From: a virus
Strand: one strand, 5' to 3'
DNA length: 64,000 bases
IMG/VR virus record: IMGVR_UViG_3300037847_006528
Coordinates: 1-64,000 of that record
In this document: piece after piece, positions 7,585 to 12,331 of the stretch
Numbering within the stretch: the stretch's first letter is position 1
Layout: each line of letters starts with the position of its first letter
Notes under the pieces: generated by a model
Seen by the model: only the letters and a program-made list of their open reading frames with translations
What the model was told of the DNA's origin: nothing
Database searches by the model: none
Position numbers and translations under genes: made by a program

Positions 7585-7773
7585 TTATTCCCCTTTATCT
7601 TTACTCTTACCGATATTTAAAGCAGCCCAATCAATAAGTGCATAGATTTTAGCCCAAAAAGTTCCCTTTTTAGGAGTAGGGGTTGCTGCGGTAATAGCAG
7701 AGGCGAGAGCAACAGCAGAAGCTACTACACCCCACCAAGGATTGTCCTGAATCAATTGAATAATTGTGTCCAT
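7585..7773 (-). CDS. Small membrane protein (holin-like)
   Basis: 62 aa; hydrophobic helix, TPTPK turn, second amphipathic helix and basic tail. Confidence 0.55.
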   Translation of the reverse strand: MDTIIQLIQDNPWWGVVASAVALASAITAATPTPKKGTFWAKIYALIDWAALNIGKSKDKGE

Positions 7774-9053: not shown

Positions 9054-9674
9054 CTAAAGAATTCTTATCCTGCTTCTGATCTTAGAAACGTGTCTCTTTT
9101 TCTCTAAAACAGAACCTCCTTCTCTGCTCCCTGCCCCGTTCGTATTGCCCTCAATCGTAACTACATAACCACTTGAGTCTGCGTCTTTTACAGCTAATCC
9201 AATGTGAGAGAAAGTAAATACGACAATATCACCTGCTTTAATATCTTCGTTTGTAGGCTTGCGAAGCTCGACTCCATTTGTGCTTTGTTGTTTAGCCCAA
9301 TTTTCAAAATCCCAAGCCCCAGCAGTTCTAGGTCTTTTGAATTTAACGTCCTCCCCCTCAATAGCCTCTCTTACTAGCCAGCAAATAAAAGCAGCGCACC
9401 AAGGCCAACCTTTATCAGCGTCTAACCATGTGGCAGCTTTGTATTCATCTACTCTTGGCCCACAATTACTACCGTCAACTTCGGATACTCCTATTTCTTC
9501 CCTAGCTAAAGAAACCATTTTTTCTGCTACGCTACCACCAGAGGCAATAGGGCTTTTTGTGGACATTTTTGCTAAAATAGCATTCCAAGTAACAGGACCA
9601 TCAGCACCATCAGCAGAAACCCCGAGAAGCTTCTGCACCGCCTTTACTACTTCTTTTTTGCCTTTAAAATTCAT
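9054..9674 (-). CDS. Endolysin: peptidoglycan-binding domain plus CHAP domain
   Basis: VKAVQKLLGVSADG.DGP.TW (PG-binding); PWCAAF, HIG and TIEGNT (CHAP). Start revised to MNFKGKK (TAATG overlap). Confidence 0.9.
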   Translation of the reverse strand: MNFKGKKEVVKAVQKLLGVSADGADGPVTWNAILAKMSTKSPIASGGSVAEKMVSLAREEIGVSEVDGSNCGPRVDEYKAATWLDADKGWPWCAAFICWLVREAIEGEDVKFKRPRTAGAWDFENWAKQQSTNGVELRKPTNEDIKAGDIVVFTFSHIGLAVKDADSSGYVVTIEGNTNGAGSREGGSVLEKKRHVSKIRSRIRIL

Positions 9675-10279
9675 TATGAACACCTTCTGCTAAAACTAGC
9701 ACACACAGACATCACGATACATAGAACAACTGTTAGTATCATGAAGTTTTTGTAGTCAGTTATTTTTTCATTTAAAATCGCAGCTTGTTCCTCATTGTAA
9801 TACATTTTTGTATCCATGATGTTATTGATGGCTTCTATTGTTGGGTCAGTCATCTCATACATCGTAGGAACTGATGCTTTAATCAATTCAACATTGTTTG
9901 TATTGCCCCATTCAATTAATTGATTGACATAAAGATTTATTTTCTTTTCTTGTTCGAATACAAAATCTGCATACTCAACCTCTTTTGGGGTTATATCCTT
10001 CTTATAACCCTCTAAATATTCATCCTTATATACCCTCTCCTCTTCTAAGGTCTCTACCATTTCCGCTGGAGTTATGACTCCATGAGAGGTTTTTACGACC
10101 GAATCTACAATGATTACCCCATACCAATCAAAGCACATACCAATTTCCATAATGGAAGACTCTGATTGTCGAGCGTTCTCTTTTAGTGTGTTTTGAATGT
10201 TTTCAGTAAGGAAAAGACCTTTGAAACCAAAGGCCAAACAAATAGCGGCTAAACAATATACAATAAACTTTGGTCTCAT
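9674..10279 (-). CDS. Two-TM membrane protein with a periplasmic four-helix-bundle chemoreceptor-type ligand-binding domain and no cytoplasmic signalling domain
   Basis: TM, ~150-aa helical region, TM. YGVIIVDSVVK..HG.IT, Y....ITPKE and MY...DP..EAI match the 4HB_MCP pattern YAVNIVD..HK...G, Y....LT.EE and LYPAIDP. Confidence 0.65.
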   Translation of the reverse strand: MRPKFIVYCLAAICLAFGFKGLFLTENIQNTLKENARQSESSIMEIGMCFDWYGVIIVDSVVKTSHGVITPAEMVETLEEERVYKDEYLEGYKKDITPKEVEYADFVFEQEKKINLYVNQLIEWGNTNNVELIKASVPTMYEMTDPTIEAINNIMDTKMYYNEEQAAILNEKITDYKNFMILTVVLCIVMSVCASFSRRCS

Positions 10280-10593
10280 TTTTTAAGAAATTTTTCTGGG
10301 TTTTTAGCAAATTTTTCGCCCATTCTTACTATCCCACTAATAACCTCTGGGCTTATTACACCAATAATCCCATAAGTAATTGCCTTAGTTAAAGATGAAA
10401 CATCAGTTTGCTCCAAAACAAACCAAGCTATGCCAGCAGCTAGGGCTGCTGTAATCACCCTTTTAAACTGTTGTTTAAGCGTTAATCCATTGTTACCTGA
10501 TAAGAGCCTAGCAAACATCGCAGCAGCACCCACAAGCGGGACCAACCAGCCTCCATTGAGGAATTCTTTGATTAAAGACTTTTCAGGTTCCAT
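10276..10593 (-). CDS. Holin (about 3 TM helices)
   Basis: 105 aa, three hydrophobic segments, basic C-terminus, upstream of the endolysin. Confidence 0.7.
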   Translation of the reverse strand: MEPEKSLIKEFLNGGWLVPLVGAAAMFARLLSGNNGLTLKQQFKRVITAALAAGIAWFVLEQTDVSSLTKAITYGIIGVISPEVISGIVRMGEKFAKNPEKFLKK

Positions 10594-10610
10594 GTAATTA
10601 ATTACTACAC

Positions 10611-10640
10611 AAAAAAAGCCACCCGTGCAGGTGGCTTTTT
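10611..10640. terminator. Bidirectional intrinsic terminator
   Basis: AAAAAAAGCCACC-cgtgca-GGTGGCTTTTT downstream of the beta-barrel gene. Confidence 0.85.
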
Positions 10641-10666: not shown

Positions 10667-11359
10667 TTAGAATTTATATGATACTCCTGCTCCTACAGAC
10701 CACTCATTGTCTAGGCTATATGCACTAGAAGAATCAAGGTCGTTATCATTGTAAGCCCCTTTAACAAAAACAGAAGCGCCGTCTGTAATTTTGTAAGCAG
10801 CAGCTAAACCTGCTTCAATAGCAGTGTATTCATCAGCAAGATTAAGTCCGACAAAAGGTGTCAACACAAGACCTTCTACTGGAGTAGCAATGTCGCGAGA
10901 GAGAATGAACTCTACGCCATAAGAGCCGCCAGAGCCTCCTCCAACTTCATGCCACGCAGTTGCTGTAAGGTCTGCAAGAGTATGACTATAAGTAAGGCCA
11001 ACGCCAACTTCGTCCCAACCTCCAAAGGAAGAATCAATCCTTTGAAAATAAAACTCAGCCCCGAGGTCTTGGCCAAGAAGGGTAACCCCCCTTGAGTAAG
11101 CAAGGGAGATGTCTTGTTCGTATCCCTCGTCAACGTCAAAAATGTCGATACCGACAGAAGCAGTGCCTCCAGCTTTTACTGGGGCAGAGAGTGTAAGTGA
11201 ATAACTAAAAGCGTCATCCCTAATGCCAACTCCTCCGCTAGTCGAAAGAGTGCTATATGAAACACCACCTTCTACAGAGACATCTGCCAAAGTGGTTGCT
11301 TTAACTGCGCCAACCATAGCAGCGCCCATAAGTAGTGTTGTAAGAATAAGTTTCTTCAT
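10667..11359 (-). CDS. Outer-membrane beta-barrel protein (porin-like)
   Basis: Signal peptide, alternating amphipathic beta strands, C-terminal GVSYKF BAM-type signal. Confidence 0.8.
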   Translation of the reverse strand: MKKLILTTLLMGAAMVGAVKATTLADVSVEGGVSYSTLSTSGGVGIRDDAFSYSLTLSAPVKAGGTASVGIDIFDVDEGYEQDISLAYSRGVTLLGQDLGAEFYFQRIDSSFGGWDEVGVGLTYSHTLADLTATAWHEVGGGSGGSYGVEFILSRDIATPVEGLVLTPFVGLNLADEYTAIEAGLAAAYKITDGASVFVKGAYNDNDLDSSSAYSLDNEWSVGAGVSYKF

Positions 11360-11970: not shown

Positions 11971-12240
11971 TTATTTCCCGCTAGGAAAATAAAGCTGCCT
12001 CTCTAAGCGCCTAAATCTAGCATCAGAATGCCAAACCTCATCTTGTTGTGGCGTATAAATCCCTTTACTTGTCTCTATTGGAATCCCTTTTGTCAAACTG
12101 AGAGTAGAAGGTTGATAGATGTTTAAAGGAGTTGTCTTCACGGATGAGTTCGTCGCGCAAGAGATCAGCACGGTCGGCATCACCGCCATTAGTCCTAATG
12201 TCTTCAAGTTCTTGAATGATTCTTTTTCTTTCTTCTTCAT
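11971..12240 (-). CDS. o-spanin (Rz1-like lipoprotein)
   Basis: Lipobox VLISC; overlaps the upstream gene in another frame; exact start uncertain. Confidence 0.6.
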   Translation of the reverse strand: MKKKEKESFKNLKTLGLMAVMPTVLISCATNSSVKTTPLNIYQPSTLSLTKGIPIETSKGIYTPQQDEVWHSDARFRRLERQLYFPSGK

Positions 12241-12331
12241 GGTCTCGTTTTAATTGTAGGTAGAAAGTTTTATTTTTTAAAGATAAAAATAACTCAATTG
12301 ATTTTAAAACAGATTTAATTAAGGAAATCAT
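12065..12331 (-). CDS. i-spanin (Rz-like)
   Basis: N-terminal hydrophobic helix followed by a charged coiled coil; overlapped by the lipoprotein gene. Confidence 0.55.
   Translation of the reverse strand: MISLIKSVLKSIELFLSLKNKTFYLQLKRDHEEERKRIIQELEDIRTNGGDADRADLLRDELIREDNSFKHLSTFYSQFDKRDSNRDK

Follow-up and report, generated by a model that had tools for sequence, protein, structure and literature searches.

The window analyzed here is a stretch of 64,000 nucleotides (nt), positions 1 to 64,000 of IMG/VR virus record IMGVR_UViG_3300037847_006528. Its minus strand carries, between positions 9054 and 10640, a lysis unit that reads, 5' to 3', as a hairpin, a GTGTA motif, a gene for a holin-like protein of 105 amino acids (aa), a gene for a sensor-like protein of 201 aa, and a gene for a CHAP-domain endolysin. 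Profile comparisons of the predicted proteins show the 201-aa protein, here called the sensor, to be a strongly diverged, output-less relative of 4HB_MCP_1, the four-helix-bundle (4HB) sensor module of methyl-accepting chemotaxis proteins (MCPs). The holin-like gene and the sensor gene together form the conserved unit; the endolysin follows only in the window's own clade, and endolysins of three types (CHAP, M15, and GH19) are found in the lysis cassettes that contain the pair. We put at about even the chance that the sensor is an accessory, antiholin-like partner of the holin, carrying a periplasmic sensor and shifting the timing of lysis.

The 201-aa protein is an output-less relative of a chemoreceptor sensor module

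The hydropathy profile of the 201-aa protein has two membrane segments, TM1 and TM2 (TM, transmembrane), that flank a hydrophilic part of ~150 residues. The N terminus (MRPK) and the tail (SRRCS) are both basic, which fits an in-in topology with the middle of the protein in the periplasm. The chain stops four to five residues past TM2, whereas the tail of the sensor in other clades is very basic and has 10–40 residues. No Pfam match to HAMP or MCPsignal was found in the 201-aa protein, which therefore does not belong to the MCPs proper; the sensor appears to have lost, or never to have had, a cytoplasmic output domain. The motifs YGVIIVDSVVK, ITPKE, and MYEMTDP, which a preliminary description of this DNA had cited for the likeness to chemoreceptors, and the SRRCS end that it listed are all found in the protein. 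Two motifs are conserved in the family: FDWYG..VD..VK..HG occupies the distal portion of the bundle's first long helix, and MY.MTDP...IN is at the start of the last bundle helix.

The relationship to chemoreceptors emerges from profile searches. A first profile, built from 32 close relatives of the 201-aa protein and searched against 1.84 billion representative proteins, matched 51 proteins at E ≤ 0.001, mostly of ~195–260 aa and sharing its layout. Six of these are longer (362–541 aa). All six have 4HB_MCP_1 above the Pfam cutoff, and five have MCPsignal above its cutoff; the sixth, P0163, is partial, with MCPsignal below the cutoff. The E values of these receptor matches run from 9e-7 to 9e-4, and the three receptors with a source name are from Erwinia, Oxalicibacterium, and Chitinimonas. 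In a Pfam scan of ten of the matches, 4HB_MCP_1 was above the cutoff in eight, and no family was found in the other two. When a profile of 28 diverse family members was aligned by hhalign with eight 4HB_MCP_1-bearing matches, the result was 99.5% over 184 columns, with an E value of 2.6e-22 that is somewhat flattered because the target set was drawn from the first profile's own matches. TM1 and TM2 are in register in this alignment, and the motifs of the first and last bundle helices are common to both sides. The long helical signaling domain of the receptors was left unmatched, which provides an internal control against a purely compositional match, and LydB of phage P1, taken as an unrelated protein, gave 0.2% against the sensor family. 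A stand-alone protein of 233 aa (P0169), with the layout and gene neighborhood of the sensor, itself passes the 4HB_MCP_1 cutoff (44.6 bits versus 27) and aligns with the 28-member profile at 98.4% (hhalign, E 9.9e-15). In a language-model feature search, only the protein's own cluster ranked ahead of 4HB_MCP_1 clusters, which scored 0.97. Neither Pfam nor PHROG has a family for the 201-aa protein, and no PHROG family was found for four members from other clades.

An AlphaFold2 model computed from an alignment of 32 relatives is all-helical (helices 3–40/43–65, 71–94, 98–126, and 137–196), with a mean predicted local distance difference test score (pLDDT) of 74. The first and last bundle helices of the model are continuous with TM1 and TM2 (helix 3–40 and helix 137–196, respectively). 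Foldseek returned no match for the model in the PDB at E ≤ 0.001; its top rows, comprising the NarQ sensor-TM fragment, Tsr, Tar, and other sensor domains, have E values of 0.1–0.8 and serve as a lead only. Alignment with VIA-align gave Z scores of 13.2 for a designed bundle, 12.3 for Vc1313-LBD, and 11.1 for the NarQ sensor-TM fragment (root mean square deviation 3.8, 187 residues). Taken alone, the predicted fold is a four-helix bundle between two TM helices and nothing beyond that. A sequence search of solved structures with the family profile produced de novo designed helical proteins and noise, which were rejected as compositional.

The preliminary description had named the domain chemoreceptor-derived. 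Homology of the TM1-4HB-TM2 unit to the MCP sensor module, with neither HAMP nor signaling domain, is upheld by the profile-profile alignment and not by the Foldseek search, and the direction of descent that the name implies goes beyond that homology.

Conservation of the holin-sensor pair

Counts for close relatives refer to the 80 viral loci nearest to the window's. Almost all of them have, in this order, a MipA-like gene, the holin, the sensor, the CHAP lysin, and a gene for a 97-aa protein. The holin-like gene was matched in 79, the exception having no upstream sequence, and the lysin in 76, two of the four exceptions ending at the sensor gene. The other two (L051 and L052) keep the holin and sensor genes and have no CHAP match in the following 1.1–2.6 kb (downstream of 3606), where no plus-strand open reading frame (ORF) of at least 45 codons starts 3' of the sensor gene. 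The holin and sensor genes are joined by an ATGA overlap, in which the sensor ATG (10279–10277) overlaps the holin TGA (10278–10276), and this junction is present in each of the 76 close loci with 320 nt or more of upstream sequence. The junction between sensor and lysin is TAATG in the window, a 1-nt overlap of the sensor TAA and the lysin ATG, and varies among 78 close loci: the genes overlap by 1 nt in 32 and by 4 nt in 23, are separated by 1 nt in 17, and abut in 2, and in the remaining 4 no lysin start was found. For the window's lysin, the ATG at 9674–9672, giving 206 aa, is the most likely start, and not the GTG at 9683 of the ORF listing. The sole Shine-Dalgarno-like stretch of the three-gene unit, AGAAGGTG (9677–9691, minus strand), lies within the SRRCS codons, 6 nt 5' of the lysin ATG, and from this position it is read as serving the lysin; none was read 5' of the holin-like gene or the 201-aa gene.

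Synteny among close relatives proves little, and distant loci were therefore examined (Table I). In these the sensor family members share 16–29% identity with the window's protein. Wherever a distant locus under examination includes upstream sequence, a homologous holin-like ORF of 104–139 aa is directly upstream of the sensor gene. Identity across clades is 34–81% for the holin family and 16–29% for the sensor. The gene 3' of the pair differs from clade to clade, clade C and the P0145 clade having a 94–99-aa protein and fiber-like genes, clade D2 a metallophosphoesterase, and one intermediate (L087) a 456-aa protein. Most clade D loci have no plus-strand ORF of family-assignable size within ~400 nt 3' of the pair; reverse-strand ORFs found there resemble tRNA genes on reading alone. 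The preliminary description had proposed holin-sensor-endolysin as the linked order; the holin-sensor part of it holds in the close loci and in all distant clades, and the endolysin part fails outside the window's clade.

Table I. Holin-like gene directly upstream of the sensor gene in distant groups
Group	Loci with holin-like gene upstream	Holin/sensor junction
Clade C	4 of 4	4-nt overlap
Intermediates	2 of 2	4-nt overlap
Clade D	9 of 9	4-nt overlap (8 loci), 59-nt overlap (1 locus)
Clade D2	4 of 4	4-nt overlap
Clade E	1 of 1	74-nt overlap
P0169 clade	7 of 7 examined (15 retrieved)	1-nt overlap
P0145 clade	1 of 1	2-nt gap
P0127 relative	1 of 1	1-nt overlap

Three clades have a second gene of holin or lysis-type membrane character just upstream of the pair (GTA_holin_3TM, Phage_holin_4_1, or XhlA/hemolysin-like). 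In clade D2 this is a GTA_holin_3TM gene (Pfam E 1.7e-11; PHROG holin E 2.4e-23), which in two loci (L149 and L150) overlaps the holin-like gene by 4 nt; in a cultured-type relative of this gene, an M15 peptidase directly follows instead. The P0169 clade has the order Phage_holin_4_1 or XhlA/hemolysin-like gene, 124–129-aa holin-like gene, sensor, 74–85-aa protein, lysin, and Rz-like gene. The first gene of this series is assigned by Pfam (Phage_holin_4_1, E 8e-10) or, in other members, by PHROG (XhlA/hemolysin-like, E 1.3e-7); the lysin is an M15 peptidase (Pfam E 6e-20) or a GH19 enzyme (PHROG E 1e-60), and the Rz-like match is from PHROG (E 2e-5). At 2177–4737 of L152 and 2288–4868 of L161, four membrane proteins stand in a row before an M15 or GH19 lysin and an Rz-like gene, and both the holin-like protein and the sensor have long, very basic tails. 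A scan of contigs with the holin alignment yielded one locus among 30 pattern matches, L167 (CAXHFF010000132.1, 1.8 kb), from a close relative with 77% identity in the holin. In L167 a lipoprotein ORF, a MipA-like gene, the holin, a 4-nt spacer, and the CHAP lysin (1120–1789) follow one another, and there is no sensor gene. The contig is binned with an Acidimicrobiaceae metagenome-assembled genome; it is probably a mis-binned phage fragment and gives no clue to the host. Because the lysis cassettes vary, more firmly assigned holin or lysis-type membrane genes stand beside the pair in three clades, and L167 lacks the sensor, the sensor is taken to be an accessory part of the lysis apparatus, as would be expected of a regulator.

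The 201-aa ORF is a real gene under purifying selection, as judged from the lengths and substitution patterns of its copies. A protein search gave 202 clusters at E ≤ 0.01 from 284 candidates; among the 120 clusters listed, 117 are exactly 201 aa long and all are 72–99% identical to the window's protein, and all 78 copies in related contigs have 201 aa. The ratio of nonsynonymous to synonymous substitution rates (dN/dS) is 0.075 for the sensor gene (periplasmic part, 0.066; TM1, 0.11; TM2 and tail together, 0.17) and 0.041 for the holin-like gene; these ratios, from up to 250 random pairs of 48 distinct sequences, are rough because dS is near saturation. At least half of the words of the stretch occur in 8 marine metagenome runs from 3 studies, and part of them in 20 runs from 10 studies. 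A marine metatranscriptome run contains a 544-nt contig from a related strain (40 differences) that spans 9282–9823 and crosses the sensor/lysin junction; DNA carry-over is possible and the strand and ends are invisible, and the contig was not counted as proof of expression, nor was any weight given to regions that lack RNA coverage. With P0126 as query no viral contig was found.

The holin-like partner and the proposed role of the sensor

In the 105-aa protein, three helices of moderate hydrophobicity are followed by a charged C-terminal tail; its family is encoded in lysis cassettes beside CHAP, M15, or GH19 lysins. AlphaFold2 predicts its helices at residues 17–32, 39–62, and 67–97 (pLDDT 67.5). 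The protein matches Phage_holin_3_3 of Pfam below the cutoff (E 0.031, 14.8 bits versus 28.4) and PHROG holin families with E values from 0.002 (phrog_6384) to 0.07, the homologue in L152 reaching 2e-4. Its atlas neighbors (score 0.90–0.92) are clusters in which 10–46% of members carry Phage_holin_3_1, 3_2, or 3_3. Comparison of P1 LydA with the holin-like family by hhalign gave 17% with an E value of 0.0014. These features are weakly consistent with a holin of superfamily III. Holins of this type usually make their own antiholin from a dual start; no dual-start motif was read in the 105-aa gene. A complex prediction for holin and sensor scored 0.00 and 0.19 against the tool's mark of 0.32 and was counted neither way.

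The module appears to consist of a holin-like gene of the lambda S or P1 LydA type and a stand-alone sensor, coupled in translation. In the antiholin-like reading, the 201-aa protein would sit in the inner membrane beside the holin. Because its gene lacks a separate ribosome-binding site, its synthesis would depend on ribosomes that re-initiate at the holin stop codon, and its amount would be tied to that of the holin. Its TM1 and TM2 would contact the holin and block or pace its oligomerization, the presumed effect would be a delay, and the periplasmic bundle would give this brake an input, through which a ligand or another periplasmic state could shift the timing of lysis. In chemoreceptors, ligand binding causes a small, piston-like displacement of the last bundle helix and TM2; the sensor has no HAMP to receive such a movement, so that only a neighbor in the membrane could be acted on. 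Antiholins are expected to be encoded beside the holin and expressed together with it, and the ATGA junction of the close loci (76 of 76), the lack of a Shine-Dalgarno sequence for the sensor gene, and the presence of the pair in all clades examined agree with this.

A narrower version, which we regard as rather doubtful, is that a chemical signal gates the lysis clock. A small molecule present outside the cell, for example one released by the lysis of neighboring cells, would bind to the bundle, and the resulting shift of TM2 would hold or release the holin, so that a receptor domain would drive lysis inhibition. With the same degree of doubt, the two genes would form a mobile module carried by many uncultured marine and other aquatic phages with unlike lysis cassettes. 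The two conserved motifs of the sensor lie at sites that we take to correspond to the aspartate-binding region of Tar, which is a lead only.

The pair could instead be a two-component holin, in which the sensor-like protein would be a structural co-holin, without which holes would not form or the 105-aa protein would not insert correctly, and neither a brake nor a sensor. Two-part holins occur in Bacillus phages, the invariant holin/sensor junction would fix the ratio of the two products, and in several clades both proteins have the long basic C-terminal tails that are typical of holins. We nevertheless judge this explanation unlikely: L167 retains the holin and the lysin without the sensor gene, the sensor is far more diverged across clades than the holin family (16–29% versus 34–81% identity), which is unlike a tightly fitted structural partner, and a purely membrane role would leave the 150-residue periplasmic bundle, with its dN/dS of 0.066, unexplained.

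Phages also place exclusion genes among their late or lysis genes, and the pair might travel with lysis genes while serving an envelope function apart from lysis timing, such as superinfection exclusion or membrane immunity. Clades C, D, and D2 have no endolysin adjoining the pair within the 3 kb read, and three clades have another holin or lysis-type membrane gene. Against this stand the three weak lines of resemblance between the partner and holin superfamily III, the location of the pair inside cassettes with CHAP, M15, and GH19 endolysins, and its position in clade D2, where it directly follows and overlaps a holin assigned by Pfam; an envelope function is accordingly considered improbable.

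The preliminary description had offered as an alternative that the truncated sensor is a decoy that interferes with host chemoreceptors. Such a decoy would form heterodimers with the receptors and disable chemotaxis during infection. The sensor is homologous to the sensor and TM module of receptors, which is the part that dimerizes. However, it lacks the whole cytoplasmic part, including HAMP and the signaling tip, by which receptors join arrays, it is obligately coupled to a holin-like gene and made with lysis genes, and the nearest receptors are remote (E 9e-7 to 9e-4). In addition, the closest endolysins to that of the P0169 clade come from phages of Flavobacterium and Cellulophaga, which are not known to have such receptors. 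The decoy is disfavored by these observations, and we consider it very improbable. Scarcely credible is a unimolecular spanin, which would fuse the membranes at lysis through an N-terminal outer-membrane lipoprotein anchor and a C-terminal inner-membrane helix: an N-terminal hydrophobic segment and a C-terminal TM helix do flank a periplasmic domain encoded in a lysis cassette, but by the lipobox rule for lipoprotein cysteines there is no lipobox (Cys9 and Cys14 are preceded by Tyr and Ile, and neither is conserved outside the window's clade), the N-terminal segment aligns with chemoreceptor TM1, a separate lipoprotein/coiled-coil ORF pair is present at 11971–12331, and the P0169 clade has its own Rz-like gene.

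Several results weigh against an antiholin-like sensor and the homology on which it is founded. The window's 201-aa protein gave no hit to 4HB_MCP_1 (PF12729) in Pfam at E ≤ 1; 3 of the 28 family members did so, the best at 0.0051 and all below 27 bits. The fold similarity (Z 11–13) is no better than that to de novo designed bundles and falls in a range common among helical bundles. The assignment of the 105-aa protein as a holin is drawn from weak matches, and with a firmer gene adjoining in three clades, the hole-former may be another protein. No homology to the known antiholin LydB was detected by hhalign. The sensor-less variant is a single contig of 1.8 kb, and all loci except this one were retrieved through the sensor gene, so that holin-only loci escape the counts. 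Finally, tblastn, at its sensitivity, found no match in cultured phages to the sensor, to P0169 or P0154, or to the holin-like protein.

If the sensor is antiholin-like, RI of phage T4 offers a functional parallel, although RI is not known to be translationally coupled to the holin gene t. RI is reported to be a small periplasmic protein, either secreted or tethered, whose target is the large periplasmic domain of holin T, and RI, as a separately encoded periplasmic domain, is thought to relay an external state to T and delay lysis (PMC8385771, PMC11413866). The pair described here can be likened to RI and T, by function and not by sequence, in having a periplasmic domain encoded by a separate gene; it differs in that hardly any of the holin reaches the periplasm and that the partner spans the membrane twice and carries a chemoreceptor-type bundle. 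The P1 record (NC_005856) shows lydA and its antagonist lydB overlapping by 4 nt, apart from the endolysin gene. The resemblance consists of a holin of ~105–109 aa followed by its partner gene with a 4-nt overlap, and the best, weak Pfam match of the window's holin is to the LydA family, whereas LydB has no similarity to the sensor family.

With the 4HB_MCP_1/TarH module of Tar, Tsr, and NarQ, the sensor shares the TM1-bundle-TM2 architecture, the topology, and profile homology. In contrast to these receptors, it ends five residues past TM2 without HAMP, kinase-control, or methylation regions, is phage-encoded beside a holin-like gene, and is too diverged to reach the Pfam threshold. GlnX of Corynebacterium glutamicum, as reported, has 4HB bundles between TM helices and a C-terminal cytoplasmic stretch of only about eight residues, and it is proposed to signal by protein contact and not through an output domain of its own (PMC9769921). 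Set beside the sensor by that description, GlnX differs in being cellular, in crossing the membrane four times and having two bundles, and in its ~110 cytoplasmic residues at the N terminus, and its partners are a binding protein and a kinase. It could nonetheless serve as a precedent for a 4HB module that signals by contact without its own output domain. In Vibrio phage ICP1, the holin TeaA (DUF3154, of the GTA_holin_3TM kind) is described together with the neighboring, TM-bearing antiholin ArrA, which brings about lysis inhibition (PMC7182436). By that account the likeness lies in a marine-type phage and in the GTA_holin_3TM gene just upstream of the pair in clade D2; the difference is that ORF137–139 of ICP1 (NC_015157), three TM proteins, are on reading alone unlike the 105-aa or the 201-aa protein.

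The present locus joins a bacterial chemical-sensing domain, without its output domain, to the lysis machinery of uncultured phages in at least eight sequence clades, and the window's own clade is abundant in marine metagenomes (the 202 clusters mentioned above). To our knowledge, lysis timing decisions are understood in molecular detail for only a few laboratory phages, and we know of sensing of the outside at the lysis step essentially in the T-even phages and ICP1. Holin-antiholin pairs as such are already known; an antiholin candidate related to a chemoreceptor input module, in a mobile pair found across unlike phages, would be new. No description of a holin or antiholin linked to a chemoreceptor-type sensor domain was found in a literature search that had most subscription journals outside its reach. 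Should the module regulate the holin, it would provide a tractable two-gene system for TM signaling by 4HB domains with lysis time as the readout, a route to the cues to which marine phages listen, and possibly a ligand-controlled lysis switch for biotechnology. Should it not do so, it would still be an unnamed, widespread family of lysis-cassette genes outside PHROGs.

Features of the locus and neighboring genes

The terminator, the GTGTA motif, the ATGA and TAATG junctions, and the holin gene that the preliminary description had listed are all present in the sequence (Table II). The hairpin has a T-run at its 3' end on the minus strand and closes the upstream MipA-like gene. The CHAP protein is confidently assigned as an endolysin from its Pfam CHAP match (E 2e-7, 31.8 bits versus a cutoff of 26) and its PHROG endolysin matches (E 2e-15). 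The source record has 82,224 bases, is an estimated 59% complete, and derives from a tailed phage that encodes a polymerase of the DnaE type and a tape-measure protein of 1,691 aa. No close cultured relative of the polymerase was found, and when the DNA of the region was compared with cultured phages, only sugar-nucleotide genes matched.

Table II. Features of the lysis unit in the window
Feature	Position	Strand	Remarks
Terminator-like hairpin	10613–10640		GCCACC/GGTGGC stem with A/T extensions, 11 pairs, 5 of them G-C
GTGTA motif	10606–10610	minus	12 nt 5' of the holin-like ATG, read from the sequence
Holin-like gene, 105 aa	10276–10593	minus	
Sensor-like gene, 201 aa	9674–10279	minus	
TM1 of the 201-aa protein	10205–10267	minus	residues ~5–25; hydropathy maximum 2.17; preceded by basic MRPK
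Periplasmic helical bundle of the 201-aa protein	9749–10204	minus	residues ~26–177; predicted
TM2 of the 201-aa protein	9689–9748	minus	residues ~178–197; hydropathy maximum 2.45
Cytoplasmic tail RRCS and stop codon of the 201-aa gene	9674–9688	minus	
CHAP-domain endolysin, 206 aa from ATG	9054–9674	minus	

Directly upstream of the lysis unit, at 10667–11359 on the minus strand, is a gene for a MipA-family outer-membrane β-barrel (Pfam 26.9 bits versus 24.2). Among close relatives its product is 40–100% identical, compared with 81–100% for the holin-like protein, which suggests that the MipA gene is a local hot spot of variation. At 11971–12331 (minus strand), an 89-aa lipoprotein ORF (lipobox LISC; LTSC in relatives) overlaps, in a different frame, an ORF for an 88-aa helical, charged protein. 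Both frames are kept in ~60 related loci with identities of 47–100%. The layout resembles that of overlapped Rz/Rz1 spanin genes, but a clear TM segment is missing from the 88-aa protein, and PHROG gave no match for either product. A 62-aa protein with one mildly hydrophobic stretch is encoded 1.3 kb downstream of the lysin (7585–7773, minus strand); its sole match is phrog_9685, a family of unassigned function (E 1.5e-4), and it might be a lysis-related membrane protein.

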